The notes under the pieces: generated by a model
What the model was told of the DNA's origin: nothing
Database searches by the model: none
Seen by the model: only the letters and a program-made list of their open reading frames with translations
Source: an uncultured Chloroflexia bacterium
GTDB lineage: Bacteria > Chloroflexota > Limnocylindria > Limnocylindrales > CSP1-4
DNA: 64,000 bases
Assembly (NCBI GenBank): GCA_963707215.1
Contig: CAVPPB010000003.1
Span: 512,001-576,000, forward strand
Direction: 5' to 3'
Translations under genes and position numbers: made by a program
In this document: in pieces, positions 11,192 to 39,985 of the stretch
Layout: the number at the start of each line of letters is the position of its first letter
Numbering within the stretch: the stretch's first letter is position 1

Positions 11192-11222
11192 TCCGAGCCA
11201 TCCCTTCGAGAGGTCGATCGCC

Positions 11223-12581: not shown

Positions 12582-12591
12582 GGGACCTGTC

Positions 12592-14508: not shown

Positions 14509-14517
14509 GGAGGACCC

Positions 14518-15279: not shown

Positions 15280-15902
15280 AGACGTACGCCCAGGCGCTCG
15301 AGCGGCTCCAGACCGAGCTGGCGCGCCACAGCCCCGAGGTCGTCGCCCTGCGGAGCGGCGCCAAGCGCATCGGCGAGGACCGCCTGGAGCTCCGCTGCCT
15401 GGGTCGAGACTACCGGATCGACTTCCCCGATGGCGAGGTGACGACGGCCGACGGCGAGGAGGTCGACGAGCACCTTGCGATCCTGCTGCTCCTGTACCTC
15501 CTGGAGGCCGGCGGGGGCCCGACGCAGGACCACTGGATCGCCTTCGAGCAGATCAGCGGGGGCGCCGGCTACAGCGGCTCGTTCCGCGGCCGCGTCCTGG
15601 GCCCCCTGCTCCGGACCTTCGGATCGGACCCGGGGAAGCTCCGGGCGGCCGCGGTCGAGCTCGATGCGTCGCCGCTCGCCATGGGCGACGCCGCGGTCAG
15701 CATCGCGGCCCTGCCCCGCGTTCCCATCGCGATCGTCCTCTGGGCCGGTGACGACGAGTTCGCCCCCAGCGCGTCGGTCGTCTTCGACGCTTCCATCGAG
15801 GGCTACCTCGATGCCGAGGCCGTGACCGTCCTGGCCGAGCAGGCCACCCGCCGGATGATCGAGGCCGCCCGGCGCGGCCCGAGCGAGGGAGAGACCCGAT
15901 GA
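15276..15902 (+). CDS. DUF3786-like protein
   Basis: 208 aa; ILLLLYL, WIAFEQISGG, LPRVPI..LW.GDDEFAPSASVVFD; ATGA-coupled on both sides inside the acs operon. Confidence 0.8.
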   Translation: MKTYAQALERLQTELARHSPEVVALRSGAKRIGEDRLELRCLGRDYRIDFPDGEVTTADGEEVDEHLAILLLLYLLEAGGGPTQDHWIAFEQISGGAGYSGSFRGRVLGPLLRTFGSDPGKLRAAAVELDASPLAMGDAAVSIAALPRVPIAIVLWAGDDEFAPSASVVFDASIEGYLDAEAVTVLAEQATRRMIEAARRGPSEGETR

Positions 15903-16870
15903 CCATCGAGCTGATGCGCGAGACCTGGCCCGGCAAGATCCAGACCGTCACCATCGGGGCGACCCCCGACGACGGCGGGACCCGGGGCTCGACCGTCACG
16001 GTCGGCGGGAGCGCCGCTCTGCCCTTCCAGCCCGATGACGCGCCGGCCCCGCATCCGCCGGTGGTCGCCCTCCAGGTGTTCGACGTCGTCCCGCCCGACT
16101 GGCCGGATCACCTCAAGGCGCCGCTCGCCGACGTGCTGGGGTCGCCGGCCGACTGGGCCCGCTTCGCCGTCGAGACCTGCGGCGTGGACCTCGTCTGTCT
16201 CAGGCTTATGTCGGTCCACCCCGAGTGGGGCGGCGCAACACCGGACGGGGCTGTCGCCACCGTTCGCTCGGTCCTCGAAGCGGTCGACGTGCCGCTCATC
16301 ATCCTCGGCTGCGGTGACGCCGCCGCCGACAATGATCTCTGGCCGCGCGTGACCGAGGCGGCTCGAGGCGAGCGTTGCCTCGTGGGCGTCGGCGAGCCGG
16401 ACAACTACAAGACCCTGGTCGTCGCCTGCATGGCCGACGGCCACGCAGTCCTCGCCGAGGCACCCATCGACGTCAACATCCAGAAGCAGCTGACGATCCT
16501 GATGACCGAGATGGGCCTGCCGGCCGAGCGGATCGTCCTCCACCCGGGCAACGCCTCGCTGGGCTACGGCATCGAGTACGAGTACTCGATCATGGAGCGG
16601 ATCCGGCTGGCCGGCCTGCAGGGCGACCGGATGCTTGCCCAGCCGGTCATCACCATCATCGGCGAGGAGGCCTGGAAGGCCAAGGAGGCCCGGCTGCCGG
16701 CTGCCGAGATGCCGATCTGGGGCGACGAGGCCAGGCGCGGGCCGGCCTGGGAGGCGACGACGGCAGCGCTCTTCCTGCAGGCCGGGGCCGACATCGTGGC
16801 CCTGCTCCACCCGGACGCGGTGGCGAGCACGAAGCGGACGATCGCAGAGCTGACCGGGACGCCGGCATAG
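15899..16870 (+). CDS. acsD: Corrinoid iron-sulfur protein small subunit
   Basis: LGYGIEYEYSIMERIRLAGLQGD, EAWKAKEA, WEATTA...AGADI..HP. Confidence 0.94.
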   Translation: MTIELMRETWPGKIQTVTIGATPDDGGTRGSTVTVGGSAALPFQPDDAPAPHPPVVALQVFDVVPPDWPDHLKAPLADVLGSPADWARFAVETCGVDLVCLRLMSVHPEWGGATPDGAVATVRSVLEAVDVPLIILGCGDAAADNDLWPRVTEAARGERCLVGVGEPDNYKTLVVACMADGHAVLAEAPIDVNIQKQLTILMTEMGLPAERIVLHPGNASLGYGIEYEYSIMERIRLAGLQGDRMLAQPVITIIGEEAWKAKEARLPAAEMPIWGDEARRGPAWEATTAALFLQAGADIVALLHPDAVASTKRTIAELTGTPA

Positions 16871-16889
16871 CAGGCGGGAGTGAGACGAG

Positions 16890-17699
16890 ATGTTCATCAT
16901 CGGTGAGCGCATCAACGGCATGTTCAAGGTAGTCGCCAAGGCGATAGCCGAGCGGGACGAGGCGACGATCGCCGAGCTGGCCCGGCGCCAGGTCGATGCC
17001 GGGGCCCAGGCCCTCGACATCAACACCGGCCCCACCGAGGGCGACCCGGTCGAGGTGATGCGCTGGCTCGTCGAGACGGCCCAGGCCGCCGTGGACGTCC
17101 CGATGTCCATCGATTCCCCGAAGCTGCCCGTCGTCGAGTCGGGGCTGCGGGCGGCCCGGCGGCCCCCGATCATCAACTCGACGACCGGAGCCAAGGACCG
17201 GCTCGACTCCCTCGTGCCGATGGCCGTGGAGCACGGCGCCAGCCTCATCGCCCTGACCATCGACGAGCGGGGCATCCCGCGCAACGCCGAGGCGCGGTCC
17301 GAGATCGCCCTGACGATCCTGGCCCACACCATGGGAGCGGGCCTGCCGCCCGACCGGCTCTTCCTGGACCCCATCGTGCTGCCGGTCAGCGCGGCCCAGG
17401 ACCAGTGTGCGGCGGCGCTGGAGGCGGTCTCGACGTTCCGGGCCCTGAGCGACCCGGCGCCGCGGATCATCGTCGGCCTCAGCAACGTGTCGCAGGGCAC
17501 CGCCCATCGCAGTCTGGTGAACCGGACCTACCTGGTGATGGGCATGGCCCGGGGCGTCGACGCGGCGATCCTCGACCCCAACGACCGCGACCTGATGGAC
17601 GCGGTCCGGACCGCCGGGATCCTGCTGAACCAGGAGATCTACGCCGAGAACTACCTCGAGTCGACCACGTCCGCGCCCAGGGTCCCCGTCGGAGCCTGA
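16890..17699 (+). CDS. acsE: Methyltetrahydrofolate:corrinoid/FeS protein methyltransferase
   Basis: MFIIGERINGMF, LDINTG, IINST, FLDPIVLPV, GLSNVSQG, GVDAAILDP. Confidence 0.94.
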   Translation: MFIIGERINGMFKVVAKAIAERDEATIAELARRQVDAGAQALDINTGPTEGDPVEVMRWLVETAQAAVDVPMSIDSPKLPVVESGLRAARRPPIINSTTGAKDRLDSLVPMAVEHGASLIALTIDERGIPRNAEARSEIALTILAHTMGAGLPPDRLFLDPIVLPVSAAQDQCAAALEAVSTFRALSDPAPRIIVGLSNVSQGTAHRSLVNRTYLVMGMARGVDAAILDPNDRDLMDAVRTAGILLNQEIYAENYLESTTSAPRVPVGA

Positions 17700-21120: not shown

Positions 21121-23013
21121 TCAGGGCGCCACGACCGTCCGGGTGATCAGGTTGCCGAGATCGTCGCCGACCGCGTCGAGGGCCACGGTGTAGGTCAGCC
21201 CGCTGGCCAGGCAGCCCACCTCGACCTCGCCCGAGCCGGCCGGCCCCTGGGCCTCGATGATGCCGGCCAAGGTCGGGTCGCCGCTGGGCAGGCGGCCGTC
21301 GGACTGCGGGTACGCCCGCACCAGCACGCCGGTCGCCTCGATCCCCTCGAGCTCGTAGGCCACCGTGACCCGGTTGCAGACGCCCTGGAAGGCGGCGGCC
21401 TCGGGCAGGCAGTAGGCGACGTCGCCGAAGTCCACGGTCCGGGCGAGGCAGCTCGCCTCCGGGGAGCCCACGTCCGTCCGGATGAACGGCTGGACGAGGG
21501 CGTCCTGGGCGAGGTGGAGATACGGGGACAGCCCTTCGCCGAGCTCGAATACAGGCTCGGCGGCGACGGCCACGTCAAGGTCGAAGCGGAGTACCCCGCT
21601 GCCGGTCGTGAATGTGCCGACCGGGCTCGAGCTCCCGAAGAGACCACCGCCGGCGACCACCTGGAAGTGGTAGCTCGTCGAGGCGAGGACGTCGAGTCGG
21701 GCGACGATGGTCGTCGCACCAGGGAACGGCAGCGACAGCAGAGACGACGCCGTCTGGATCACCGCCGGCGAACCATCGGCCTCCCAGAACCGGACCTCGG
21801 CCGAGGACGGCGGATCGAGGGTGAAGGCGACCAGGGCGACATTGGGACGATCGGAGTCCACGCCGACGATCTCGATCCGCGGTCCGAAGAGCACCTCGAG
21901 GTCGGGGAACGGGATCTCGAAGACGCCCTCGATGCCGCCGGGACAACCGGGTGGCCTGGGCTCGTCGAGGCAGATCTCGAGGACCGGGATCGCCTCGAGG
22001 TCGCCGATGTCGCTCGGACCGACGACCGGCGGGTCGGACAGCTCGGGCGGCTCGGGTGGGACCTCGTCGCCGGCCTCGGGCGGGGCCGATGAGATGGGAC
22101 TCTCGCCCGGTGCCGGGCTGGCCGGCGCACCGCCGCCCGATGGCGGCAGCGGCAGCACGTCGGGACCCACCACGTCGGGCGGCGTCCCACCGGGCGGGAA
22201 GACCCAGGCGGCGAGGATCCGCGACGAGCCGCTGAAGGCCTGGCCGAACGCGTCGACGATCGAGGCCGGCCACCAGTCGCCCTGGTAGCCGCCGTGGCCG
22301 ATAGGGTCGATGACGTAGTAGGCCGGTGGGGTGATCCCATCGCCAGGGTAGTAGCCGTCGAGGTAGACGGCGTGAGGCCCCGTGAAGCTCGGCTGGAGCC
22401 GGATCGACGCCGGGATCTCGCCATAGATGCCCTGGATGACGGCCCCGTAGCCGGCCGCCAGGAGGCCCTTGAGCTGGCTCGGCGTCACCGCGCCGGTCCG
22501 GATGTCGACGCCGAAGCCGCGGAACAGGGCCTGGTCGAGGTCGTCGAGACCGACGCCGCCGACCTGGTCGTCCTGGAGGGTCCGGAGGATCGAGCCGGTC
22601 GTGACGATACCGAAGCCCAGGCGGGCCAGCATCGCCCCCGACGCGAGCGTGCAGTTGGCCCCCTGGAACGGCCCGCCGTCGAACTGGGTCACCGGCGGGA
22701 TCCTCGGGAAGCCCAAGGGTCGAGTGCCAGCGACAGGCTGGGCGTCGACAAGGGCGGCCGAGGCGAGGGCGAGGTCGGCCGGCGCAAGACCGGGCACGAC
22801 GACCGGCTGCTGCTGGGCATCGATGAGGTCGAAGGCGGCCGGCACCGACTCGAGGCCGGCCTCGGCCATGACGTACTCCGGCGCCTCGCGGGCGGTGGGC
22901 GCGAGCTCCTGCCGCCCGAGGACCGACGCCCCCACGAAGGCTGCCGAGCCGCCGACGACCACGGCGACCAGGAACACGACGAGCTTCGGGAGGAGGCCAG
23001 CAAGGGTGGTCAT
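21121..23013 (-). CDS. Exported protein with a peptidase C39-like domain and beta-sandwich domains
   Basis: Signal/TM segment; Q(FDG)...NC(TLAS)...H(AVYLDG)...ID(P) papain-like order; Pro-rich linker; ATGA overlap with the upstream gene. Confidence 0.75.
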   Translation of the reverse strand: MTTLAGLLPKLVVFLVAVVVGGSAAFVGASVLGRQELAPTAREAPEYVMAEAGLESVPAAFDLIDAQQQPVVVPGLAPADLALASAALVDAQPVAGTRPLGFPRIPPVTQFDGGPFQGANCTLASGAMLARLGFGIVTTGSILRTLQDDQVGGVGLDDLDQALFRGFGVDIRTGAVTPSQLKGLLAAGYGAVIQGIYGEIPASIRLQPSFTGPHAVYLDGYYPGDGITPPAYYVIDPIGHGGYQGDWWPASIVDAFGQAFSGSSRILAAWVFPPGGTPPDVVGPDVLPLPPSGGGAPASPAPGESPISSAPPEAGDEVPPEPPELSDPPVVGPSDIGDLEAIPVLEICLDEPRPPGCPGGIEGVFEIPFPDLEVLFGPRIEIVGVDSDRPNVALVAFTLDPPSSAEVRFWEADGSPAVIQTASSLLSLPFPGATTIVARLDVLASTSYHFQVVAGGGLFGSSSPVGTFTTGSGVLRFDLDVAVAAEPVFELGEGLSPYLHLAQDALVQPFIRTDVGSPEASCLARTVDFGDVAYCLPEAAAFQGVCNRVTVAYELEGIEATGVLVRAYPQSDGRLPSGDPTLAGIIEAQGPAGSGEVEVGCLASGLTYTVALDAVGDDLGNLITRTVVAP

Positions 23014-24017
23014 GTGAGGCAGAGGTCCACGGCCAGCGTGAGAGAGGGCGGACGGACCGGGAACCTGGTGCTGTTGCCCACGCTGTCGTACCCGACGACG
23101 TAGTAGTCGAGATACGGATCCGTCGGCGACCAGCCGATGCTATCCGCCACCGTAGACAGCGAAGCCACCCAGACGCCACCTGCGCCGGCGGCTGGCGCCA
23201 TGGCCTTCTGGTTGAAGGTCGATGCTCCCGGCTTGCGGAAGAAGAGGACCACGCGGGCGACACCCGACGGATCCGATGCTGTCACCGAGATCGTGGCGCT
23301 CGTCGGCCCGCACTGCGACGCTCCGTACCAGATCTTCGACACGCTGGAGCCGAGGTTCGACATGGTTGGGCCCGTCGTGTCGGGCGGCGGGGTCGGCGGT
23401 GGCGGCAGTGTCGGGGTCGCAGTCGGCGCTGGGGTCGGGGTCGGGCGTGGTGTGGCGGTCGGGCGTGGTGTGGCGGTCGGGCGTGGTGTGGCGGTCGGGC
23501 GTGGTGTGGCGGTCGGGGTCACCGCGGGGCTGGACGAGGGCGACGGGGACGGGGACGGGCTCGGCGAGGGCGACGGGCTCGGCTCGAAGCTGCCGACGAC
23601 CGTCAGCGTGGCGGTCGGTTCGGCAGTGGGCGGCGGGCTGCCCGCCTCGCCGCAGTCGACCACCTCGAGGTCCTCGAACGCCCCTGCAAGAGCGAGCGCC
23701 CCGGCCGCGACCCAACCCTCGGTGCGATCCGGGGCCGGGTAGTGGATGCGCAGCCAGGCGCCGTCGGCGGAGCGTCCGGTGACGAGCATCCGCTGCCCGG
23801 CCGGTGCACGGGCGAGGATCGGGCCGGCCTCTGGGCACGGGTAGATCGCCAGCAATTCGCCCGACGGTGACGGCTCGGCCGATGGCCCGATCGCGCCGCT
23901 GACGCCCACTCCAAGGGCCCCGCCGACGAGCAGGCCACCGACGACGATGGCCCCCGCCATCGGGGCCCCACCGAGCGACCCGACGAGCTTCGCGATCCAG
24001 GCGCTCAGCGCACTCAC
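23010..24017 (-). CDS. Membrane-anchored SH3b-like + Pro/Thr linker + Ig-like protein (start approximate)
   Basis: TM GAIVVGGLLVGG; VTGRSADGAWLRI...EGWV; DTTGP...DPSGV..V.L...YYVV..D..GN. Confidence 0.75.
   Translation of the reverse strand: MSALSAWIAKLVGSLGGAPMAGAIVVGGLLVGGALGVGVSGAIGPSAEPSPSGELLAIYPCPEAGPILARAPAGQRMLVTGRSADGAWLRIHYPAPDRTEGWVAAGALALAGAFEDLEVVDCGEAGSPPPTAEPTATLTVVGSFEPSPSPSPSPSPSPSPSSSPAVTPTATPRPTATPRPTATPRPTATPRPTPTPAPTATPTLPPPPTPPPDTTGPTMSNLGSSVSKIWYGASQCGPTSATISVTASDPSGVARVVLFFRKPGASTFNQKAMAPAAGAGGVWVASLSTVADSIGWSPTDPYLDYYVVGYDSVGNSTRFPVRPPSLTLAVDLCLT
23440..23511. repeat. 4 x 18 bp tandem repeat GTCGGGCGTGGTGTGGCG (encodes ATPRPT linker on the - strand)
   Basis: Four exact copies read directly from the sequence. 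Confidence 0.9.
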
Positions 24018-24111
24018 ATCACGGCGCCCTTCCCCGATCCCTCGAGATCGGACCTCAGGGGACGCGCCGCATCGAGCATACGCGCGACGGGTAGCGCTGC
24101 CACATGCATGC

Positions 24112-25179
24112 TCATCCTCCGGGCCGCCCGAACAGGCGGATCTCGCTGATCGCGGCGACGTCGAGCGGGCTGCCGGGCAGGTCCGTCGGCTGGGCTTCGT
24201 AGGTCGAGGCGATCTCGATCCGCACGGTCGTGGGCCCCTCTGAGAGCTCGAGATCGAGCCGCTGTGGCTGCTGCGAGTCCGCAAGCAGGAACGCCGCCGG
24301 TGGCCCGCCATCGACCGAGACGAGGACGTCCTTCGGGCGGAGGAGCCCCCGGAAGGCATCCGCGCTGGCCTGGTCCCCGGAGTAGATGACGACGAAGTCG
24401 AGATCGGCCGCCTCGAAGCTCACCTCGATCCACTCCCCCACCGCCCCGTCTGCACCCTCCTGCCAGGACGTGTCGAGCCGGCCGTCGATGGCCATGTCGG
24501 CGTCGACCGCGGCATCGTCGTCGCGGACGGACGAGGAGCTCGCACCGATCGGCAGGAGCGCCACGCTCTCGTCCTGGCTGGGGGTCGATCCCCCGCTCGG
24601 CGCGAGGGTCGGCGTCAGCGTCGGGGATGGCGGCCCCGGGGCGGACGTCGCCTCGGACGCTGCACCGCCGTCCCCGCCCAGCAGGATGCTCGCGCCGACG
24701 ACCACGAGGCCGACGAGCAGCCCGAGGCCCGCCACCGGCAGCAACCAGCCCGGCAGCCCGCCGGACGACGGGTCCGTACCTCCATGAGAACGGACCGGTG
24801 CGCGGGAGGGCTGCGGCGCGGGTGGGCGTGCCGCGGTCCCACCGGACGACGTCCCGGAAGGGCTCGCCGCCCGGGCGGACGTCGGCGCGGCTGCCGCAGC
24901 GAGGCGCTCGCCGCAGCTCTGGCAGAAGGTCCGGCCGCCCGGGTTCGAGGTCCCGCAGACGCGGCAGTGGATGGCGCCGGCCGTGGCCGTGTCGGGGGCG
25001 CTGGCGACCGTGTCGGGGGTGCTGGCCGCCACCATCGGCGACGCTGGCTCCGACGATGCCTCCCTCGGAGCATCGACCGAGTCGCCCTCCCAGGCGAGGT
25101 AGGCGCCGCATGATCCACAGAAGGTGTCGTCGGGCGCGTTCGCGGTGCCGCAGCGTCGACAGACGATCCGATCGGTCAT
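24112..25179 (-). CDS. Double zinc-ribbon / TM / discoidin-like (NADase-type glycan-binding) protein; CisA-like paralog 1
   Basis: CRRC..N...FCGSCG, CRVC..N...FCQSCG, one TM, AIDG..DTSW.EG...GEWI, RPKDV, AISEIRLF. Confidence 0.85.
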   Translation of the reverse strand: MTDRIVCRRCGTANAPDDTFCGSCGAYLAWEGDSVDAPREASSEPASPMVAASTPDTVASAPDTATAGAIHCRVCGTSNPGGRTFCQSCGERLAAAAAPTSARAASPSGTSSGGTAARPPAPQPSRAPVRSHGGTDPSSGGLPGWLLPVAGLGLLVGLVVVGASILLGGDGGAASEATSAPGPPSPTLTPTLAPSGGSTPSQDESVALLPIGASSSSVRDDDAAVDADMAIDGRLDTSWQEGADGAVGEWIEVSFEAADLDFVVIYSGDQASADAFRGLLRPKDVLVSVDGGPPAAFLLADSQQPQRLDLELSEGPTTVRIEIASTYEAQPTDLPGSPLDVAAISEIRLFGRPGG

Positions 25180-25191
25180 CCCTGCCGCCCC

Positions 25192-27297
25192 CTATCGTCG
25201 CAGGATGACGACCGGCGGCGGATCGCCGAGCCCTCGCTCCACGGGGAACCGCGGAGGCTGCGCCAGCGCAGACACGACGTCGAAGGCGGCCCGGACCTGC
25301 GGGAACGGCGGACCGCCGGCGGGATCGGCGACCAACTCTCGTGGCCCGCGCAGGTCGTTGTGGAACACGAGGACCTGGACCCGGAAGCTGCCGCTCCCGT
25401 CGGCCTCGATGGGCGCCAGCCTCGGCGTGGCACCGCGACTCCAGGTCAGGCTGATCTCGGCACCGGGCGGGAAGCCGGCCCCCGTGGCGATCGTCACGAT
25501 CCCGGGTCGACCAAGGGGAGGGTCGAGGTCCAGGCTCGCCAGCGATCCGCCACCGCGCAGCCGCACCGTCCGGGGCGAACCTGCCGCATCGTCCGCCATC
25601 TGGAGGACAGCGATCCGCTCCCCGGTCACCGTTGGCGTGAAGACCACCGATACCGTGCACGCCTCGGTCCGATAGAGAGAGCGACCGATGCAACCGTCGA
25701 AGACCACCGCGAAGTCGATCGCCGCGGTGCCGGTGATCGCCGAGCCAGCGCCCGTCAGCGGGGCCCAGCCGTCGTTGCGCAGGGTCGCCGCGGCCGGAGC
25801 CGTGGCGACGCCCAGCTGGCCCGACCCGAAGACCAGCTCGGGCGGGTCGATCCGCGGCACCGCCGGGAGGTCGCGTACGAACACGTCGGCTCGGTCGTTG
25901 CCGTCGCCCGCGACGAGCAGGCTCGATGTGGAGGCGAAGGCGACGTACCGGCCACCGCCTCCGATGGCCGGGGTCAGGCTCTGCCCGCCGCCGGGGCCAC
26001 CAGCCAGCGCCTCCGAGATCCGGATCGTCTCGCCGGCGACCAGGTCGCGCGCGTAGACCTCCGACGGACCTCGCAGCAGGGCGGCCGGCACGGCCCCGGG
26101 CACGGCGCTCCGGTCGATCCCCGTCATTGCAGGCGTGAGCCCCGTGCCGGTCGAGGCGAACGCCACGAACCGCCCGTCCCGGCTGATGGACGGCTGACCC
26201 GACGAGCCCGGCACCGGACCGCCATCGACGCTCACCGAGACGAGCGTCGTCGTCCCAGATCGACGATCCCGACGGAACACGTCGAGGGTCCCGACCGGGT
26301 CACCGGGGACGAAGGCCGAGGATGTGGACTCGAAGGCGACGAACCGGCCGTCCCCCGAGATGGCCGGCAGGGTGCTGGGCCCGTCAGCGTTCGTGACATC
26401 GCTGACCGCCTCGGTCACGCTGGTGTCGAGGTCGCGGACGAAGACGTCGACCTGACGGTTGACGTCTTCGCCTACGAGATCCGGGGCGTCGGACTGGAAC
26501 GCCACGACCCGGCCGTCCTGCGAGATGGCCGGCGCGCTGCTGGCGCCGCCGCCCGGACGGCCGACCCGGTTCCCCGAGACCAGAAGCGTCGTGCCGGCCT
26601 GTCGGTCGCGGACGAAGACCTGTTGGGTCCCGGTGGATGACCCTCGCCCAGCCCGGGACGCGAAGGCGACCAGCCGCCCATCACCGGAGACCGACGGCTC
26701 GGTGCTGTCCCGGATGGCCGTGCCGTCGCTCGCCAGCGAAACGATCTCGGTCGTGCCCGACGAGCGGCTCCAGGCCAACACCACCGGCAGCACCGCAAGA
26801 CCGGACGTGGCGCTGCTGGGCGGTCGGTAGACGAAGGCGACCAGGGATCCGTCGGCCGCGATCGACGGGTCGCCGGCCGACGCGCCCGGTGGCACCGGGG
26901 CGCCCCCCGGCAGCGGCAGTCGGATCGTCGTCCCGGCATCGCGGTCTCGGAGGAAGACGTCGACCACGCCGTTGGTGTCGCCGGTGACGAGGTCCGGCGC
27001 GCCCGAGGCGAAGGCGACGAACCGGCCGTCCTCCGAGATGGCCGGTTGGGCCGAGGGGCCGCCGGGCGATCCGCCGCCGACGCGGACCGACTCGCGAGTC
27101 GTGGTCCCCGGCGGTGGCGGGAGGGGGGCGGCGACGGGCGTCCTCGACGGCGGGAGGGCCGGCGGGTCGTTCGCCGGACGGCCGCCCGCACTCGACGGCG
27201 CCACCAGGGAGAGGGCGATCGCGAGGGCGATGGCCCTGGGTGGCCCGCGGCGACCTACGGGCGAAGGTAGCCCGAGTAGAGCACGGCCGGGTTGCAT
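25192..27297 (-). CDS. Secreted TolB-like (PD40) beta-propeller protein with C-terminal Ig-like domains
   Basis: Repeated P.IS.DGRFVAF.S....LV.GD.N...DVFVRD; signal-like RAIALAIALSLVAPSSA after in-frame ATG 27297. Confidence 0.85.
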   Translation of the reverse strand: MQPGRALLGLPSPVGRRGPPRAIALAIALSLVAPSSAGGRPANDPPALPPSRTPVAAPLPPPPGTTTRESVRVGGGSPGGPSAQPAISEDGRFVAFASGAPDLVTGDTNGVVDVFLRDRDAGTTIRLPLPGGAPVPPGASAGDPSIAADGSLVAFVYRPPSSATSGLAVLPVVLAWSRSSGTTEIVSLASDGTAIRDSTEPSVSGDGRLVAFASRAGRGSSTGTQQVFVRDRQAGTTLLVSGNRVGRPGGGASSAPAISQDGRVVAFQSDAPDLVGEDVNRQVDVFVRDLDTSVTEAVSDVTNADGPSTLPAISGDGRFVAFESTSSAFVPGDPVGTLDVFRRDRRSGTTTLVSVSVDGGPVPGSSGQPSISRDGRFVAFASTGTGLTPAMTGIDRSAVPGAVPAALLRGPSEVYARDLVAGETIRISEALAGGPGGGQSLTPAIGGGGRYVAFASTSSLLVAGDGNDRADVFVRDLPAVPRIDPPELVFGSGQLGVATAPAAATLRNDGWAPLTGAGSAITGTAAIDFAVVFDGCIGRSLYRTEACTVSVVFTPTVTGERIAVLQMADDAAGSPRTVRLRGGGSLASLDLDPPLGRPGIVTIATGAGFPPGAEISLTWSRGATPRLAPIEADGSGSFRVQVLVFHNDLRGPRELVADPAGGPPFPQVRAAFDVVSALAQPPRFPVERGLGDPPPVVILRR

Positions 27298-28500
27298 GGT
27301 CCGCCGTCGGTGCAGTTCAGCGACAGGTTGAGGTTCTGGCCTGGGGTGAGGACGATCGGCGTGACGAAGTGGAAGTCGAGATCGCGGAAGTTGGCGAGCT
27401 GGAGCTCCAGCAGCGGCGTCGAGTCCCGGAGCAGGACGATCGCGCCCTCGCGCCCGCTGGGGTTCGAGAACACGAGGTCGGTGATGAAGAGGGTGCCCGT
27501 GGCCGTGATCGACTCGGCGCCTTCCTGCAGCCGGCCATCGACGGGGTTCCCCAGACCCGGGATCATCGGTCCGGCCGGGGTCGGCGTCGGCGTCGGCGGG
27601 GCGACCGACTCGCCCGGCGCCGGGGTCGGCGTCGGGGTCGGTGCGGGCGCTCCACCGCCTGGACCCATGGTCGCCAGCCCGGCCGCCCCGAGCGCATCGT
27701 TCACGTCCTGGCGGAGCTCGGCGACCGGGGAGGCGACCGCCTCGGAGGCAGCCGAATTCGATCGCCGGCCGGAGGACGAAGAGCCAGAGCAGGATCGCGG
27801 CGATGACGAGGACGACCAGGGCGGCGATCGCCCGCCCGAACCACGGCGGCAGGAGCGACTCCTGGACCATCGTCCCGTCGAGCGCGATCGGCTGACCGTC
27901 CCCTGGCTGGACCCGGACCTGGAACGGGCGGGTCTGCGGAGCCCCACGCCAGAAACGCTTGGCCGGGCGGACACGGACCTTCGCGAAATCGGCCATGCCA
28001 GGTTCGATGACGAGCTCAGGCGGCACCACGTCGAGCCGGAGCAGTCGGTCGGCGTCCTCCGCCTCGATGGCGGCACTCAGGCGGACGTTCCCGCGGTTGT
28101 CGACCGCGAGGTCGTGCGTCGCGCTCCGGCTGCCCCGGGAGGTCCGAGGGACCAGCTCGGCGTAGGGCTCCTGGAAGGCCGCGACCTCGACGGTCGCCTC
28201 CTCGACGCTCGAGCCGGCCGGGTCCTCGCGAGATCGGGCCCGGAGCCCGTAGGTCAGGCTGCCTGCGGCGATGGCAGCGGCCCGAGGCGGCCGGAAGACG
28301 ACCCGACCCGACTCCTCCGTGCCGGGGAAGAGCGAGATGGTCGCCGGCTCCACGGTCGCCCACGCGGCCGCGTCACCGAGGACGTCGAGGGTGAACTCGT
28401 CGACAACGGTGCCGTCGTTCCGCAACCGGAACTCGACCGCCGCCTCGCCCCCAGGCTCGACCCCGATGCGCGGTGCCTGAAGCGTGACCGTTGCACCCAC
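27255..28500 (-). CDS. COG1470-like Ig-domain bitopic membrane protein; +1 frameshift at about 27755
   Basis: RLRNDGTVVDEF, DNRGN, TM AIAALVVLVIAAILLWLFVL; removing one T in GAATTCG joins it to the 27255..28076 frame (ESAASEAVA...YSGYLRP). Confidence 0.8.
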
Positions 28501-28570
28501 GGAGCGAGTGTGTCGTTCGATCCGCGTCGAGCGCTAGGTCCGGTAGCACCCTCCAGAGGGGCTTCCGGCC

Positions 28571-28586
28571 TTGCCCGAGAGGGCAG
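28571..28586. promoter_or_regulatory. Palindrome TTGCCC-GAGA-GGGCAG, candidate operator
   Basis: Lies in a divergent promoter region; the same arms occur at 31224-31239. Confidence 0.55.
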
Positions 28587-28713
28587 ACCCGCCCGCCATC
28601 GGTCGCCCGTTAAGCCCACGTGGAGCGCACGAAGAGCATCTCCGGCTATGGTCGGAGAGCGTTCCGCCGACGCGAACGACCCATGGCGGGACCGACAGGG
28701 AGGGGCACCCGTC

Positions 28714-29358
28714 ATGGTCGCCGAACCCGTTCCGATCACCAGCCGAGTCCCCGTCGTCGTCATCGCGACGGATCCCCTGCTCCGGGCCGGCATCGTCAGC
28801 CAGCTGCGGACCGGCCATGGCATCGTCATCGTCGGTGAGAGCGCACCGGAGGGGGCAGTGGGCCTGATCGTCGCCGAGGAGATGGACGAGACGACCGTCT
28901 CCGACATCCGGGCGCTGCGTGCCCGTGGCATCAGCCGGGTCGTCCTCCTGGTCACCCGGCTCGACGACCGGGCGCTGCTGGCAGCTGCCGAGGCCGGCGT
29001 GAGCGGTGTGGTCCGCCGGAGCGAGGCGACGGGACCCGCACTTGCCGGCGCCATCCGGTCGGCCGCAGCGGGCGAGGGCAGCCTCCCCCCTGACCTGCTC
29101 GGACGGCTCCTTCGCCACGTCGGCCAGCTCCAGCGGCAGATCCTCGCGCCGCGTGGGCTCACGCTGTCAGGGCTGACCGAGCGTGAGGCCGACGTGCTTC
29201 GACTGCTCGCGGAGGGGTGCGACACGGCCGAGGTCGGTCGGCGACTCTTCTACTCGGAGCGAACGGTCAAGAACATCATCCACGACGTGACCGCCCGGCT
29301 CGAGCTCCGTAACCGGACCCATGCCGTCGCCTACGCGATCCGCGAGGGCCTCATCTGA
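28714..29358 (+). CDS. LuxR/NarL-family regulator with a degenerate receiver domain
   Basis: LTEREADVLRLLAEG.DTAEVGRRLFYSERTVKN...LRNRTHAVAYAIREGLI; GGAGG RBS. Confidence 0.92.
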   Translation: MVAEPVPITSRVPVVVIATDPLLRAGIVSQLRTGHGIVIVGESAPEGAVGLIVAEEMDETTVSDIRALRARGISRVVLLVTRLDDRALLAAAEAGVSGVVRRSEATGPALAGAIRSAAAGEGSLPPDLLGRLLRHVGQLQRQILAPRGLTLSGLTEREADVLRLLAEGCDTAEVGRRLFYSERTVKNIIHDVTARLELRNRTHAVAYAIREGLI

Positions 29359-29391: not shown

Positions 29392-30258
29392 TCAGGGCGT
29401 CGGGGCGGGCGCTGGCGCGGACTGGGTGGCTCCAGACGTCGATGTCGACCGTGTCGCGACGTTCGCGTTGATCGTCGTCCCGGCATTCCGACCGTGGTCG
29501 GTGTTCGCGTCGAACTCGGCGTTGGTGGCGGTCGCGGCGTTCTCGATCTGATCGATCCTCGCGTCGGCCGCGGCCTCGGTCAGGCCGACCAGCCTTGTGT
29601 GGATGTTCGCATAGGCCGCCTGGTCGATGGCGACGTGCTGCTGCTCGTGGGCCCGGAGCGCGGCCAGGAACCGGTCCCACTCTGCCTGCTCGGCCGGGCT
29701 GCCCTTGGAGCGATCGGCCCAGGTGGGGAGGGAGACTGTCTCGGTGACGGTGACGTTGGCGTACTTGACCCTACCGGAGGGGGTCGGCGTGTAGGCGATG
29801 TCGGAGAACTGCGAGGTGACGCTGCCGGCCTCGGTCCTCGCGGCGAGCTGGTTGGCGACGCTCAGGAAGTCGCCGCTGACCGAGTAGGTCGTGTTGACGA
29901 CGTTGATGACCGTGCTGCTGGAGGTGGCCGGCTCCTCCTCTTCACTGAGCTCCTCCGCCTCCACATCACCGTCGCCGTCCACCAGCTGGACCGGGACCTG
30001 CCGGGTCGACGCATCGATCGACCGCTGGGCGTGCGCCGGATCTGCCAGCAGGCTCGCGGTGGCCGCGTTGCCGATCCGCGGAGTGAGCCCGTCGACGATC
30101 CGGCGAGCCGACCCGCCGTCCGTGGCACGGACCAGCACGCTCCGGAGGAGGTCGACCCCGGCCTCGAACTCGGTGTCGGGGTCTCGATGGATCGCACCCC
30201 GGGCGCTGTCCGCGAGGTCCCGTGAGGAGGGCGCGCGTCGGTGAGCGCTGGCCTTCAT
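29392..30258 (-). CDS. DUF922-like putative Zn-metallopeptidase, candidate CIS cargo
   Basis: LPTW...EWDRFLAALRAHEQQH...FDANTDHG; ATGA-coupled to the DUF4157 gene. Confidence 0.75.
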   Translation of the reverse strand: MKASAHRRAPSSRDLADSARGAIHRDPDTEFEAGVDLLRSVLVRATDGGSARRIVDGLTPRIGNAATASLLADPAHAQRSIDASTRQVPVQLVDGDGDVEAEELSEEEEPATSSSTVINVVNTTYSVSGDFLSVANQLAARTEAGSVTSQFSDIAYTPTPSGRVKYANVTVTETVSLPTWADRSKGSPAEQAEWDRFLAALRAHEQQHVAIDQAAYANIHTRLVGLTEAAADARIDQIENAATATNAEFDANTDHGRNAGTTINANVATRSTSTSGATQSAPAPAPTP

Positions 30259-31091
30259 GCGTAGAGCTCCTCCTCTTCCGGGATGTCCTGCCGCTGGGCC
30301 GGCAGCAACATCGCGATCTCTTCGTCCTCCTCGTCCTCCTGCCGCTGGGCCGGCAGCGCCTGGAGGAGCTCCTCCTCTTCCGGGATGTCCTGCCGCTGGG
30401 CCGGCAGCATCTGGGCGTACTCCTCGAGTTCCTCGTCGTCCTGACGCTGAGCCGGCAGCATCCGGGCGGCGGCCTGGTCGCCGGCGGCCTGGTCGCCGGC
30501 GGCGGGGGAGGCCATGGCAGCGTCCGCGGTCCGCTCGGCGGCACGCTCGAACTCGTCACCCGGGTCCGACACGCTCAGGCCACCTCCGACCGGCGTCCCG
30601 GCGACCGGCCCCGAGCGTTGCTGGACGACGTGGGCGAGCTCATGGGCCAGGGTCCGCTTGCCCTCGTCCGTGTCGGGCGACCAGCGGTCGGAACGGAAGA
30701 CGACGTCGGAGCCGACGGTGTACGCCTGGGCGGCGATCGAGCGGGCTGATCCACTGGCCTGCGAGTCGTCGTGGACCCGGACGTCGCCGAAGTCGGCTCC
30801 GAGGCGGCCCTCCATCTCGCGGCGGAGACCCGGCTCGAGCGGCCGGCCCCCTCCCGAACCGACCACGTCGAGCACCGACGATCGGTCGCCTTCCTCCTCG
30901 GGGGACAGCAACCGGCTGACGGTGGCATTGCCGGCAAGGCGCTGGAGCTCGAGCACGGCCTGAGCGGTGGTCGAGGCTGGCCCGGCCGATCCGTCCACTG
31001 GACTCGGAGCGGCGGTCTCGTGCTCGACCCGCTCCGGCAGGGGCCCTCGGGTCCGAGTGGACCTCAGGTCCCCTTCCTCGTGCTCACGCAT
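30255..31091 (-). CDS. DUF4157 (eCIS core domain) protein
   Basis: GRPL...MEGRLGADFGDVRVH...AQAYTVGSDVVF...LAHELAHVVQQ, VSDPGDEFERAA. Confidence 0.92.
   Translation of the reverse strand: MREHEEGDLRSTRTRGPLPERVEHETAAPSPVDGSAGPASTTAQAVLELQRLAGNATVSRLLSPEEEGDRSSVLDVVGSGGGRPLEPGLRREMEGRLGADFGDVRVHDDSQASGSARSIAAQAYTVGSDVVFRSDRWSPDTDEGKRTLAHELAHVVQQRSGPVAGTPVGGGLSVSDPGDEFERAAERTADAAMASPAAGDQAAGDQAAARMLPAQRQDDEELEEYAQMLPAQRQDIPEEEELLQALPAQRQEDEEDEEIAMLLPAQRQDIPEEEELYA
30258..30461 (-). repeat. 4 x 51 bp imperfect coding repeat (xLPAQRQ + acidic stretch)
   Basis: MLPAQRQDDEELEEYAQ / MLPAQRQDIPEEEELLQ / ALPAQRQEDEEDEEIAM / LLPAQRQDIPEEEELYA. Confidence 0.9.
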
Positions 31092-31223: not shown

Positions 31224-31239
31224 TTGCCCCTTCGGGCAG
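31224..31239. promoter_or_regulatory. Palindrome TTGCCC-CTTC-GGGCAG, candidate operator
   Basis: Upstream of the DUF4157 gene; arms identical to 28571-28586. Confidence 0.55.
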
Positions 31240-31783: not shown

Positions 31784-33967
31784 TCACGTCGGCTGCCGGG
31801 CCAACCGGCCGAAGTGCTCGCCGAACTCCGCCTCGTGGGTCAGCCGGCCGAGCTTCTGGTACTCGCGCTCGGTCGCTCGGACGAGGTCGGTCATCGAGAC
31901 GGGTCGCTCGTCGGCCGCCGCGAGGAAGGCCGCCGCCAGGCACACGTTCCGGATGTTGCCGCCGGAGAGCTTGAAGGCCCGGGCCAGGAACCCGACGTCG
32001 ATGTCGTCCGCGCGGGGCAGGCTCGGTGGCAGGTGGAGCTCCCAGAGTCGACGGCGGTCACCCTCCTCGGGCATCGGGAAGTCGACGATCACGTCGAGGC
32101 GACGCAGGAACGCTTCGTCGAGGTTGGCGCGGAGGTTGGTCGTCAGCACGGCCAGCCCGTCGAAGCGCTCCATCCGCTGGAGGAGGTAGGCGATCTCGAC
32201 GTTGGCGTATCGGTCGCGGGCATCCTTGACCTCGGAGCGCTTGCCGAAGATCGCGTCGGCTTCGTCGAACAGGAGGACCCCGTTGATCCGATCGGCCTCG
32301 GCGAAGATGCGGTCCAGGTTCTTCTCCGTCTCGCCGATGTACTTGTCCACGACCGTGGCCAGGTCGATGACGTAGAGATCGAGCCCGAGGGCCGCTGCCA
32401 CGACCTCGGCCGAGAGGGTCTTGCCGGTCCCGGAGTCCCCGGCGAAGAGGGCCGTCACGCCGCTCCCACGGCCGCCGGACCCGGCCAGGCCCCAGCCGTT
32501 CAGCACCCGCTCGCGATGGCGGACGCGGGCGGTCAGCTCGTGGAGCTGGCTCAGGGGGTCGGGCGGCAGGACGAGGCCGGTCCAAGCGGCTGTCGCCTGG
32601 ACCCGCCGCGCAAGGCGCTCGAGGCCGCCGGCATTCTGTGCTCGGGCACCGGCGGTGAGGTCCGATGCGACGAGCGGTCGCCGCTCGCTCGATGCCGCCC
32701 GCCGGGCCGCGATCGCTGCCCGGCGGATCTGCTCGGGATCGAGGCGGAAGCCGGCCGTCGCGGCCACCGGGTCGAGGTCTGCGACCGCCGCGGCGCCGCC
32801 AGCCCGAGGCTCGTCATCGGGCGGTCCGATGTCGGCTCCGAGGGCGATGTCCCAGGCGGCGCGGCGCTCGGGCTCCGCCAACAGTGGGACCTCAACGACC
32901 AGCGGCACCTCGCGGGACCAGCCGGGATCCCAGCCGCGTGTCCCGATGAGGACCACCTGGCAGGGAGCCTCGGCGAACGCCCGGACGGCGGCGGCGCCGC
33001 GCTCGGCCAGCGGATCGAGGGGCCCGGCCAGGACGACGGCGCCGCGGAGACGAGCCTCCCGGATCACCTCGGCCGCGATGACCGCCGGGTCGTCGCCGCC
33101 GAGTCGCTCCAGGTCGATGCCGAGGGCGGGCTGTCCGACTCCTCGGATGGCCGCGGCGGCGAAGGCGAGCCCGGCCGATCCGGGCCGCTCCCGGAGATAG
33201 CACAGCGGCGTGCCGTCCTCGAGCGACCGGGCCAGCGACTCCGTCCCGTCCGGGCCGGTCGGGCTCGCCTCGAGGGCCAGGGCCTGGAGCTCGGGCTCCG
33301 GCCGATCGTCGCCCAGGAGGTGCGCAGTGACCCGGTCGGGCACTCGCAGGGCCCGGGTAAGGAACGGTCGTGACGGCTCCTCGACGATGACCAGGCCGCC
33401 GCTCACGAGAACCGCTCCGGGGGCGAGCCGTCGTCGTCCGTCCAGGCCACCCGGCGGATCGCCGGCCAGCTCGAGCGCGAGGCCCGCGCTGGCCCGCCGG
33501 CGCGACACGTCGTCGTGGAGGTACGCGTAGAGGCGCTCAAAGCGAGCATCGAGGTCAGGGGCGATCGCCACCAGCAGGATCAGCGTGTCGGCCTCGTCGA
33601 GCCCGAAGGACCGGGCCAGGCGGCGCAGCCGAAGATCGGCGCCACTCCCTTCCGCGTCGGCGGCGCGGGCGTCGAGCCGGGCTCGAGCAGCGGTCGTGTC
33701 AACCGGGTCCGCGTCCGCGGTCCGGGCGGGCCCCTCGAGCAGTTCGTCCACCTGGGCGTCGGAGATGTAGAGCCCCCGGAAGCGGTCGTCGGGCTCTGCG
33801 TCGGCCGCCCGGCGACGGTCGACGGCGGCACGGACCCGGGCCTCGACCAGCGCGACGTGTCCGTACAGGTCGGCCAGCGACGGGTCGTGGCCGGCCGCGG
33901 CGCGCTCCAGGGCCCGCTCCGCGCCAGAGGTCCGGCCGTCCTGGTCGGTGCTCGCGAAGGCGGCCAC
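31784..33967 (-). CDS. CIS AAA+ ATPase (Afp15/Pvc15-like)
   Basis: DDRFRGLYIS N-terminus; ALFAGDSGTGKT, VVDKYIGETEKNL, LLFDEADAIFGKRSEVKDARDRYAN. Confidence 0.93.
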   Translation of the reverse strand: MAAFASTDQDGRTSGAERALERAAAGHDPSLADLYGHVALVEARVRAAVDRRRAADAEPDDRFRGLYISDAQVDELLEGPARTADADPVDTTAARARLDARAADAEGSGADLRLRRLARSFGLDEADTLILLVAIAPDLDARFERLYAYLHDDVSRRRASAGLALELAGDPPGGLDGRRRLAPGAVLVSGGLVIVEEPSRPFLTRALRVPDRVTAHLLGDDRPEPELQALALEASPTGPDGTESLARSLEDGTPLCYLRERPGSAGLAFAAAAIRGVGQPALGIDLERLGGDDPAVIAAEVIREARLRGAVVLAGPLDPLAERGAAAVRAFAEAPCQVVLIGTRGWDPGWSREVPLVVEVPLLAEPERRAAWDIALGADIGPPDDEPRAGGAAAVADLDPVAATAGFRLDPEQIRRAAIAARRAASSERRPLVASDLTAGARAQNAGGLERLARRVQATAAWTGLVLPPDPLSQLHELTARVRHRERVLNGWGLAGSGGRGSGVTALFAGDSGTGKTLSAEVVAAALGLDLYVIDLATVVDKYIGETEKNLDRIFAEADRINGVLLFDEADAIFGKRSEVKDARDRYANVEIAYLLQRMERFDGLAVLTTNLRANLDEAFLRRLDVIVDFPMPEEGDRRRLWELHLPPSLPRADDIDVGFLARAFKLSGGNIRNVCLAAAFLAAADERPVSMTDLVRATEREYQKLGRLTHEAEFGEHFGRLARQPT

Positions 33968-33969
33968 GG

Positions 33970-34845
33970 TCAGGGCCGCGAGATCCCGCGGACACGGACG
34001 ATGCGACCCTCGCCGAACCCAGCGATGTCCGGGGGCGTGCCGGCGACCGGCGGCTCGGCGTCGGCGTCCCTGGTGCCCTTCGTTCGGCGTCGTCGCCCCC
34101 CGGCCGCCTCGTGAGCCGTGGGCGATCCGTCGGTCGTGGTCGGGTGCCGCAAGCCGGTCGCGCCGCCCTGGACGATCTCCTCCTGGAGGGCCGCGTCGCC
34201 GGGCCCGAGCCGTCGAGCTGCCCGACGAGACGGTCGGCCGTGGTCGGAGCCGATCCGCTCGGACGCTCCGTCGGGGGAACCGATCCCGAGCATCGGGCCC
34301 TCGAGGACCGGCGCCGCGACCTCGGCGGTGACGTCCGGGTCGAGCGGCGCGATGGCGATCAGGTCGAGTGACGGCTTCAGCTCCCCGCCGAGCGCCGACC
34401 ACACGTCGGCGACGGAGCGGTCCTGGGGTGGGGGCTGACCGACCAGCAGGTAGACGGGGTATGGGGCGTCAGCGAGGGCCCCGCCAACCAGTTCGACCGG
34501 GATGAACTCGTGACGTACGAGGGTGGCGAGACATGCCGCGAGGAGGCGGTGCTCGTCCTCCGGACGCTGGGTCCATGCCGTGATCAGGTACGACAGCCGG
34601 AAGCGACGTGCCGGCCGGCGTCGTCCGCCGACCAGGCCGGTGGCCGGGTCCCGGACGTCCTCGCGGGCGATCTCGCGGCGGGGCAGGTCCTCACGGATGT
34701 CGTACAGGTACAGGTCGATCGTCGGCGCGTTGCGGCGCGCGACCCACTCCTTGGTCGGTGCATCGAACTGCAGCTCGACCCGGGAGCCGTCGAGCGCCTC
34801 GCGCCGGATGAGGGCCTCGAGCGCCGAATCCACGTCCGGGATCAT
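33970..34845 (-). CDS. DUF4255 protein (Afp16/Pvc16-like cap/terminator)
   Basis: FDAPTKEW...PTIDLYLYDIRED...LSYLITAW...EDEHRLL...WSALGGELKPSLDL. Confidence 0.9.
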   Translation of the reverse strand: MIPDVDSALEALIRREALDGSRVELQFDAPTKEWVARRNAPTIDLYLYDIREDLPRREIAREDVRDPATGLVGGRRRPARRFRLSYLITAWTQRPEDEHRLLAACLATLVRHEFIPVELVGGALADAPYPVYLLVGQPPPQDRSVADVWSALGGELKPSLDLIAIAPLDPDVTAEVAAPVLEGPMLGIGSPDGASERIGSDHGRPSRRAARRLGPGDAALQEEIVQGGATGLRHPTTTDGSPTAHEAAGGRRRRTKGTRDADAEPPVAGTPPDIAGFGEGRIVRVRGISRP

Positions 34846-34914
34846 CGCGTCCAGTCTCGTCCACGGCCCGGAGACGGGACCCTGGCCGGCGGGCAGCCGA
34901 TGGGGCCGCCGAGG

Positions 34915-34930
34915 CTGCCCGAACGGGCCA
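34915..34930. promoter_or_regulatory. Near-match palindrome CTGCCC-GAAC-GGGCCA
   Basis: Lies in the divergent DUF4255/sheath promoter region. Confidence 0.4.
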
Positions 34931-35024
34931 GGCCGGTCGCCCTCTCGCCCGTCCGGCAGGTCCTTGTCGTGCCTCGGCGGCGGTGGGAGCCTCGACCCGT
35001 ACGCACACCGCAAGGAGTCGTCAC

Positions 35025-36541: not shown

Positions 36542-36581
36542 TCACGACGGTCGAGCCGACCCAGGGAAGGAGAGGCGGTCC

Positions 36582-37037: not shown

Positions 37038-37038
37038 C

Positions 37039-37598: not shown

Positions 37599-37606
37599 TC
37601 GAGGCC

Positions 37607-39526: not shown

Positions 39527-39547
39527 GGGAGGCAGCGGAGGACGACG

Positions 39548-39982: not shown

Positions 39983-39985
39983 GCC

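Follow-up and report, generated by a model that had tools for sequence, protein, structure and literature searches.

How the cytoplasmic contractile injection systems (CIS) of class IId, the Streptomyces type, find the membrane and what triggers their firing is an open question. Two sets of Streptomyces proteins are reported to be needed for CIS-mediated death and firing (PMC10066040, PMC12237407). The first is Sco4256-4258, described as having one transmembrane (TM) segment, a similar N-terminus and a variable C-terminus, which carries ricin in two of them (Casu et al., 2023, PMC10066040). According to the same report these proteins are toxic in E. coli, CIS-dependent death requires them, and a mutant lacking all three has empty tube lumens and behaves like a CIS deletion strain. 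Vladimirov et al. (2023, PMC10020575) describe an HHpred resemblance of Sco4256 domain 1 to pilus chaperones and homologues in class IId loci of Actinobacteria, Cyanobacteria and Chloroflexi; Sco4256 was detected in their purified particles and they term the family a "putative toxin". The second is CisA (Sco4242), with a Cys-rich zinc-binding stretch before the TM segment and a carbohydrate-type C-terminal domain of ca. 150 aa (PMC10020575). It has been presented as a bitopic protein that is required for contraction and predicted to bind Cis11; its binding to the particle is stated there as not demonstrated in Streptomyces (Casu et al., 2025, PMC12237407). For Chloroflexota, the account of the cytoplasmic CIS of Roseiflexus holds that membrane attachment may differ, close cisA homologues being missing, and gives the contact between CIS and membrane as an open question (Gaisin et al., 2026, PMC12998442). 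Here we describe five envelope genes, A to E, that stand beside a CIS in an uncultured Chloroflexia bacterium (contig CAVPPB010000003.1 of assembly GCA_963707215.1). The whole stretch of 64,000 nucleotides that was analyzed is referred to as the window.

All five genes are read from the minus strand, one after the other, from 28500 down to 21121, as follows.

28500-27255, minus strand: gene A, split by a frameshift
27297-25192, minus strand: gene B, exported protein with a beta-propeller of PD40 (TolB-like) type and, at its C-terminus, Ig-like (choice-of-anchor D) domains
25179-24112, minus strand: gene C, CisA-type paralogue with two zinc ribbons, one TM segment and a NADase-type discoidin glycan-binding ectodomain
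24017-23010, minus strand: gene D, anchored by its N-terminus; weak SH3b-like domain, then a Pro/Thr/Ser linker and a beta domain at the C-terminus
23013-21121, minus strand: gene E, anchored by its N-terminus; probable cysteine peptidase domain (papain-like, C39_2-like), then two FN3 domains at the C-terminus

A and B overlap by 43 nt and D and E by 4 nt, with gaps of 12 nt between B and C and 94 nt between C and D, so that the tight coupling, order and strand given in a preliminary description of this DNA hold. Its statement that all five carry TM or signal segments stands as well, TM segments being found in A, C, D and E and a signal-like N-terminus in B, and the products are membrane or extracytoplasmic proteins. 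Judged by gene content and similarity, the neighboring CIS is a complete class IId system. Co-occurrence, synteny and a shared palindrome show that the operon is a genuine, conserved companion of this CIS. What it does is a matter of inference. We think it somewhat probable that the five genes form a co-regulated envelope accessory module coupling the cytoplasmic CIS to the membrane and the wall.

The clearest evidence for the association comes from the distribution of the genes among genomes. We used a class-level sample of 151 genomes and a phylum-level sample of 401 Chloroflexota genomes. In the former, E was found in nine genomes, all of one family (8/44 there excluding the genome of the window, 0/106 in other families). 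The cap family PF14065 (Pvc16_N) was found in ten, the same nine plus G092, the CIS of which is a distant subtype without A-E nearby. Every genome with E thus had the cap gene. Presence of E and of the cap is identical but patchy within genera (3/5, 3/3, 1/9 and 1/5) and spans 5-6 genera. Strong homologues of D (E-value ≤ 1e-19) were confined to the same nine CIS-positive genomes; the other 59 D-matching genomes gave weak matches (E-value ≥ 4e-14), mostly to the low-complexity linker. C had matches in 14 genomes, eight of them CIS-positive members of the family and six belonging to another family, where the zinc ribbons alone were matched; matches of C type that reach the ectodomain occurred only in CIS-positive genomes. 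The tallies for C and D come from a stricter first look and are floors. At the phylum level the A profile was detected in 50 genomes and Pvc16_N in 76 (G364 included), i.e., in 46 of the 50 A-positive genomes versus 30 of the 351 A-negative ones.

Gene order tells the same story. A scan of 185,579 species genomes with the A alignment gave 258 relatives, and the loci of the best 80 of these 258 were compared; all are labelled as Chloroflexota or Candidatus Limnocylindrales metagenome-assembled genomes, except for one labelled Verrucomicrobiia. The LuxR gene is divergent from A in the window, as had been described, and in 70 of 75 related loci it is likewise divergent and within 1.5 kb of A. CIS structural genes were present in the 10-kb upstream flank of A in 44 of the 57 loci with at least 9 kb of flank. 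Ten of the 13 exceptions were checked and all ten have Pvc16_N, at 12-17 kb from A in eight, at 45 kb in one and on an unmatched contig in one. On the other side, B follows A in 56 of the 59 loci for which 8 kb or more of downstream sequence was available, and the gene sets in these 59 were BCDE (36), BC (14), B (5), BDE (1), C (1) and none (2). A pyridine-nucleotide oxidoreductase gene comes after E in 18 of the 80 loci and beyond the SARP gene in the window, a difference in position indicating an inversion of the entire E-to-SARP block. Genomes of genus g3 have D and E, still adjacent, away from the CIS, at a distance of 87 kb in G038 and on separate contigs in others; there too the pair is found only in CIS-positive genomes. 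In G119 (L018, 13495-17410) two A paralogues flank a shortened E-type gene, in the order A, E', A', D, B, and there is no C.

A block that behaves as a single island could also carry B-E as ordinary envelope genes, functionally unrelated to the CIS and simply hitch-hiking on its mobile island. The absence of B-E from the other class IId loci examined would fit this, as would the fact that PD40, SH3 and FN3 domains are common in secreted proteins. We consider it very improbable, given that D and E are confined to CIS-positive genomes even at 87 kb from the CIS, and that the operon starts with a CIS-family gene, includes a CisA paralogue and shares an operator with the CIS.

This candidate operator is a palindrome, TGCCC-N4-GGGCA, with three copies of interest in the window.

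28572-28585: TGCCCGAGAGGGCA, in the divergent intergenic region between A and LuxR
31225-31238: TGCCCCTTCGGGCA, second exact copy, upstream of the eCIS-core (DUF4157) gene
34916-34929: TGCCCGAACGGGCC, copy with one mismatch, in the divergent promoter region between Pvc16 and the sheath gene

The two exact copies, at 28572 and 31225, bear out the earlier remark that the operon has a palindrome in common with CIS promoter regions. Against an expectation of 0.14 exact sites in the window, two were found, a number reached by one of 100 shuffles. The motif recurs in the 80 related loci (1.39 Mb), with 68 exact sites: 15 in the sheath/Pvc16 intergenic region, seven at the edge of the Pvc16 N-terminus, 13 upstream of eCIS-core, eight between LuxR and A, 23 in unannotated stretches and two elsewhere. 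A single one of the 68 falls inside a module gene. The A/LuxR region also holds a conserved AACGGGCA element (50 of 78 loci). Around this element, in the 260 nt upstream of A, there is a conserved CAGTCAACG...CTTAACGGGCA arrangement, and related loci have a GCTACACT/GTTACACT box near the start of A that is possibly a -10 region. An inverted-repeat search of 28400-28800 returned nothing at the thresholds used, the palindrome having been noticed by eye and by pattern search, and a scan for promoter and terminator consensus sequences was uninformative. The operon is probably co-regulated with the CIS through this shared operator in their promoter regions. Its palindromic form suggests the LuxR/NarL regulator as the protein that may bind it. 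The LuxR of the locus is 47% identical to that of a Streptomyces plasmid CIS cluster and is conserved in class IId clusters.

The first gene of the operon is the one that ties it most directly to a described family. In the present assembly a one-base insertion near 27753-27775 (GAATTCGG) shifts the reading frame of A (+1), giving two parts.

28500-27757, minus strand: N-terminal part of A, 248 codons, two PapD/ASH-like beta-sandwiches followed by a single TM helix
27752-27255, minus strand: C-terminal part of A, in the other frame, 165 codons, a juxtamembrane helix, a Pro/Thr linker and an extracytoplasmic beta-sandwich of ca. 100 aa

Both parts are contiguous and in frame in every orthologue examined. 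The orthologues are single open reading frames (ORFs) of ca. 410-440 residues in 40 out of 40 cases, and for this reason we rejected the interpretation of A as two genes. A second frameshift in the window divides a Glu/Gln-tRNA synthetase gene into overlapping ORFs at 4277-4801 and 4788-5999, each of which matches tRNA-synt_1c. In view of this second split gene, and of an assembly of five contigs rated 84.8% complete, A is no more likely to be a real pseudogene than to be hit by a one-base assembly error. Public reads matched with small shares of their words and in short contigs only; one DNA contig stopped fitting at 27756. One public RNA-library run contained two near-identical contigs of 151 nt on A (27783-27933 and 28127-28277), which is not proof of transcription.

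The N-terminal part of A matches Pfam Cep192_D3 (8.9e-9), and hydropathy gives one TM segment at residues 215-248. The AlphaFold2 model of the closest intact orthologue (L054) has a predicted local distance difference test (pLDDT) value of 85, with the two N-terminal beta-sandwiches above 90; they are followed by a long helix (219-272) that holds the TM segment, a disordered Pro/Thr linker and the C-terminal beta-sandwich of ca. 100 residues. Foldseek matched the N-terminal pair to the SPD-2 domain of CEP192 and to the FimC and CsuC chaperones, i.e., to ASH/PapD-type folds. Since A has no signal peptide and carries basic residues before the TM segment, its N-terminus, and with it the pair of beta-sandwiches, would lie in the cytoplasm.

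A tblastn search of plasmids with the N-terminal 240 residues of A returned 28 records (20 Streptomyces, two Streptantibioticus, one Kitasatospora and five Deinococcus), in which the matched genes are annotated as hydrolase, hydrolytic protein or RICIN protein. One of them sits inside a full Streptomyces CIS cluster, between DUF4157 and an AAA ATPase. With the RICIN-domain protein of the Streptomyces CIS cluster A has 37% identity over 257 aa (BLASTP, E-value 2e-57), and the similarity stops after the TM segment. By these comparisons, made with a plasmid-borne Streptomyces homologue and with published descriptions and not with Sco4256 itself, A is a member of the Sco4256-4258 family. Like those proteins it has a PapD/pilus-chaperone-like N-terminal domain, a single TM segment, a variable C-terminus and a place in a class IId locus, and the tandem A paralogues of other Chloroflexota recall the three Streptomyces genes. 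It differs from them in that its ectodomain is a small beta-sandwich and not a ricin lectin, and in that it heads an operon of exported proteins.

Homology to Sco4256-4258 leads as well to a different explanation, in which the operon handles an effector: A would be a membrane-targeting toxin loaded in or on the CIS, and B-E would mature it, restrain it or assist it once released, for example by degrading the wall to complete cell death, with no role in docking. The toxicity in E. coli, the empty lumens and deletion-like phenotype of the triple mutant (PMC10066040) and the detection of Sco4256 in purified particles (PMC10020575), all mentioned above as reported, agree with it, and so do the peptidase-like features of E and the cargo-type neighbors of the operon, eCIS-core and DUF922. 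However, a folded tandem beta-sandwich with a TM helix would be an unusual tube cargo. Besides, the operon of A includes a CisA paralogue as well as exported proteins, for which loading from the cytoplasm would be impossible, and in other Chloroflexota paralogues of A type fill the CisA or tail-fiber slot. We therefore regard this explanation as unlikely.

The second link to the Streptomyces systems involves two genes of the locus, C and a gene at the far end of the CIS.

45965-47323, plus strand: CisA-type gene of 452 aa, in the tail-fiber slot, after the Tail_P2_I (Cis12-type wedge) gene

In the gene annotation of the window no tail-fiber gene follows the wedge gene, the slot being taken by this double-zinc-ribbon membrane protein. 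It consists of a zinc ribbon, a Glu/Pro-rich linker, another zinc ribbon, a TM segment (269-300) and a NADase-type glycan-binding domain. Its alignment with the zinc-ribbon protein encoded after Cis12 in the Streptomyces cluster (E-value 9e-18, 28% identity over 259 aa) spans zinc ribbon, TM segment and C-terminal domain; that protein was chosen as the CisA counterpart by position and architecture in the plasmid cluster and not by comparison with Sco4242. C has Pfam zinc ribbons (Zn_Ribbon_1/DZR) before a TM segment at 141-174 and a NADase_transloc match (1.7e-11). With NCBIfam NADase_discoid (cut-off 38 bits) C scores 73.7, the 45965-47323 product 43.3 and the Streptomyces post-Cis12 protein 77.5. 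C and the 45965-47323 product match each other over 322 residues (BLASTP, E-value 1e-8), in agreement with the earlier notice of a paralogue of the last CIS gene in the operon; the match of C to the Streptomyces protein covers the zinc ribbons only (BLASTP, E-value 5e-6).

On this evidence from sequence and position, 45965-47323 is the CisA-type gene of the locus, in the canonical place after Cis12, and C is a second, diverged one, so that the locus has two CisA-type genes. The resemblance of both to CisA lies in the Cys-rich zinc-binding region, the single TM segment and a sugar-binding C-terminus of ca. 130 aa, and 45965-47323 also directly follows a Cis12-type wedge gene as in Streptomyces. 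Unlike CisA, C is not placed downstream of baseplate wedge genes; it lies inside the envelope operon, 21 kb from 45965-47323, and its Streptomyces match is limited to the zinc ribbons. The idea that the operon encodes a scaffold different from CisA has to be abandoned accordingly, since the locus holds a CisA-type gene and C is its paralogue. The preliminary description had missed both the frameshift in A and the membership of A and C in families linked to the Streptomyces CIS.

The three remaining products would all work outside the cytoplasm. B has PD40 repeats (Pfam, 1.2e-17) and an Ig-like choice_anch_D domain that scores just below the NCBIfam cut-off (2.2e-10, 41 bits versus 45), and its orthologues share the signal-like N-terminus. 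It was rejected as a TolB, scoring 30.8 bits with the TIGR02800 equivalog, the cut-off of which is 343.15. Like TolB of the Tol-Pal system it has PD40 beta-propeller repeats and would lie outside the cytoplasmic membrane; unlike TolB it adds Ig-like domains, and Tol-Pal partner genes are absent. D has an N-terminal TM segment at 11-44 and a weak SH3_3 match (7.6e-4, 20.1 bits), which, being below the cut-off of 27, makes the label "SH3b" only a lead.

E has an N-terminal TM anchor, a peptidase-like region of ca. 180 residues (ca. 100-275) and two FN3 domains at 374-630 (Z ca. 10). Papain-like peptidases have a conserved Gln, Cys, His and Asp in that order, and Q110, C121, H214 and D236 of E are invariant, in the same order, in 54 homologues. 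The ten best language-model look-alikes of residues 90-285 were all Peptidase_C39_2/C70 clusters (score 0.95), which we take as a lead only. Pfam and NCBIfam searches with E gave no family match, and none of 331 homologues had a Pfam domain. Peptidase_C39_2 searched in the 54 homologues gave one match with an E-value of 0.12 and nothing significant, and a search of PDB sequences with the E profile returned only chance-level thioredoxin rows. In the structural model pLDDT is below 50 over residues 90-168, and fold searches found the FN3 part only. The invariant tetrad and the look-alikes, without a match to a family model, make the label "C39-like peptidase" reasonable but unproven, and E is a probable C39-like cysteine peptidase. 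A tblastn search of plasmids with E found no match. The E orthologue of G062 (L020, 15064-16742) is in four pieces with one in-frame TGA, due to decay or to assembly errors. The domain labels first given to A (Ig-like), B (propeller and Ig, the latter just under its cut-off) and C (zinc ribbon, TM, discoidin) hold, SH3b in D falls below its cut-off and the C39-like label of E is left without a family match.

D and E, perhaps with B, might be imagined as an autolysis cassette that opens the wall after assembly or firing of the CIS, as lysis genes do for extracellular CIS and phages, the promoter being all that A and C share with it. The anchor and papain-like tetrad of E, the weak SH3b match of D, the persistence of D and E as a pair when separated from the rest and their restriction to CIS-positive genomes are what one would expect from it. 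It is nevertheless quite improbable in our opinion, because the operon has no holin-like gene, no peptidoglycan-hydrolase family was detected for E in Pfam or NCBIfam and class IId CIS are described as acting inside the producer without being released (PMC10066040, PMC12998442).

The reading that we favor, an accessory module that couples the CIS to the envelope, would work as follows. A and C would be single-pass membrane proteins with their cytoplasmic parts facing the CIS, and B, D and E would be outside the membrane. Together with the CisA-type protein of 45965-47323, A and C would give the free-floating CIS a membrane address by recruiting its baseplate. Their ectodomains, a beta-sandwich in A and a glycan-binding discoidin domain in C, may contact wall glycans and B, D and E. 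B, the wall-binding-type D and E would tie the membrane address to the cell wall and sense or remodel it, with E cleaving a wall peptide or a partner protein. The state of the envelope would then determine the site and the moment of docking and firing, a role like that of CisA in Streptomyces. From sequence comparison, the cytoplasmic parts of A and C are homologous to parts of Streptomyces proteins needed for CIS function. What we infer on top of this is the topology, the way in which the five proteins touch each other and the baseplate, the peptidase activity and a role in the trigger. A complex prediction for mature B and the A ectodomain, run without controls, scored 0.00 and carries no weight either way.

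Several points weigh against this proposal. Casu et al. (2023, PMC10066040) read Sco4256-4258 as tube-loaded effectors and not as adaptors. The physical contacts among the module proteins and with the CIS are putative, and the assignment of E as a peptidase has no significant support from hidden Markov models or folds. Next to A, we did not find B, C, D and E in f19 (G176, G417), f9 (G515), the g85-type locus (G261), G423 or G492, nor were they found in the Streptomyces CIS cluster examined, which makes them dispensable for class IId CIS in general. There is no C in G119, and no exact palindrome was found near the relocated D-E pair in G038, G005 and G125. The genomes sampled are kin, so that the co-occurrence counts overstate independence. 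Finally, with A frameshifted here and E broken in G062, the module may be decaying in some genomes.

Loci without the full operon place A as follows. In f19 it adjoins LuxR and the CIS, C, D and E are absent and there are weak matches to the Ig-like part of B only; in f9 it adjoins the cap gene. In G261 (L134), G423 (L137-L138) and G492 (L139-L140) one to four tandem A-type paralogues with differing ectodomains come directly after the wedge gene, i.e., in the CisA slot, and a CisA-type gene was not found there. The ectodomain of one of them, from G261, shows a weak resemblance to beta-propellers (PQQ_2, 2.9e-4, below cut-off). The linkage of A to the CIS is found both in Chloroflexota and in the Streptomyces cluster, B, D and E were found only in one Limnocylindrales-like family, and the B-C-D-E operon with A appears to be an elaboration of that family.

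A bolder version of the coupling hypothesis is possible, though we consider it doubtful. Proteins of Sco4256 type would be the cytoplasmic face of a trans-envelope trigger complex and not tube cargo. A and C would span the membrane, and B, D and E would form a wall-attached platform that reads wall integrity and licenses docking and firing. The resemblance to TssJ-TssL-TssM of the type VI secretion system (T6SS) would be one of idea, a trans-envelope assembly that fixes a contractile machine in the envelope. Unlike there, no TssJ, TssL or TssM family is among the Pfam and NCBIfam matches of the five proteins, the host is not a classical diderm and class IId CIS float freely until fired. No ATPase, channel or secretin-like component was found among the five products, which leaves the export function of the earlier proposal without support. 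The thylakoid-anchored CIS of Anabaena is comparable in that a TM helix of a protein of the fiber or baseplate region is reported to provide the anchoring (PMC10020575, PMC12998442). There the anchor is part of the particle, whereas here there are separate membrane-protein genes and three exported proteins.

The surroundings of the operon can be summarized as follows. The G+C content of the window is 72%, and genes were therefore called from third-position G+C and reading-frame plots.

28714-29358, plus strand: LuxR/NarL-type regulator, divergent from A (GerE, 6.2e-13; full-length similarity to NarL)
29392-30258, minus strand: DUF922 protein, cargo-type, between the LuxR and eCIS-core genes
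30255-31091, minus strand: eCIS-core/DUF4157 protein, cargo-type, between the regulator and the CIS
31784-45831, both strands: CIS core, identified with Pfam and by 33-65% identity to the Streptomyces plasmid cluster
47324-49939, minus strand: SARP/BTAD-type regulator of ca. 870 aa, at the end of the CIS island

In the CIS core the AAA ATPase and the Pvc16 cap are on the minus strand; the plus strand carries sheath, tube, tape measure, tube, LysM-type tube, VgrG, PAAR, gp25, baseplate J and a P2-I-like wedge. Within the range of identity given, the sheath reaches 59% and baseplate J 53%. A 135-aa protein at 37039-37446 has no family match. Identities of 54-79% across Chloroflexota, and of 65% to its counterpart in the Streptomyces plasmid cluster, place it among the best-conserved proteins here. 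The DUF922 gene is present in only some of the related loci and thus behaves like variable cargo. The SARP/BTAD regulator after the CisA-type gene is also found in G137, G062, G038, G176 and G515, so that with the conserved LuxR/NarL the island carries two conserved regulators. The left flank of the operon has an alpha/beta hydrolase and then the complete CO dehydrogenase/acetyl-CoA synthase (Wood-Ljungdahl) operon (6255-17699), which contains CooC-type ATPases, CODH, the ACS beta subunit, CdhD-type subunits, the RACo activator, DUF3786 and a pterin-binding methyltransferase.

With regard to novelty, no paper joining "contractile injection" with "Limnocylindr" was found in the open-access literature searched, and a search there for Sco4256 or Sco4257 together with Chloroflex gave nothing beyond Casu et al. 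(2023), Vladimirov et al. (2023) and a preprint. The claim of an undescribed module is thus right in part. The five-gene operon, the CIS-restricted families of B, D and E and the operator are new in the sense that no description of them was found in that literature; the families of A (Sco4256-4258) and C (CisA-type) were already known and tied to the Streptomyces CIS.

For the biology of these systems, the locus shows that CisA-type genes do exist in one large lineage of Chloroflexota, here in two copies, the second being part of an operon that also encodes a Sco4256-type protein and three exported proteins. It offers a list of specific parts, open to testing, for the envelope side of class IId CIS and a genomic argument that Sco4256-type proteins act at the membrane, and the shared palindrome with the conserved LuxR/NarL regulator provides a handle on regulation. 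If the trigger complex were real, Chloroflexota would have assembled, from unrelated parts, a functional counterpart of the T6SS membrane complex.

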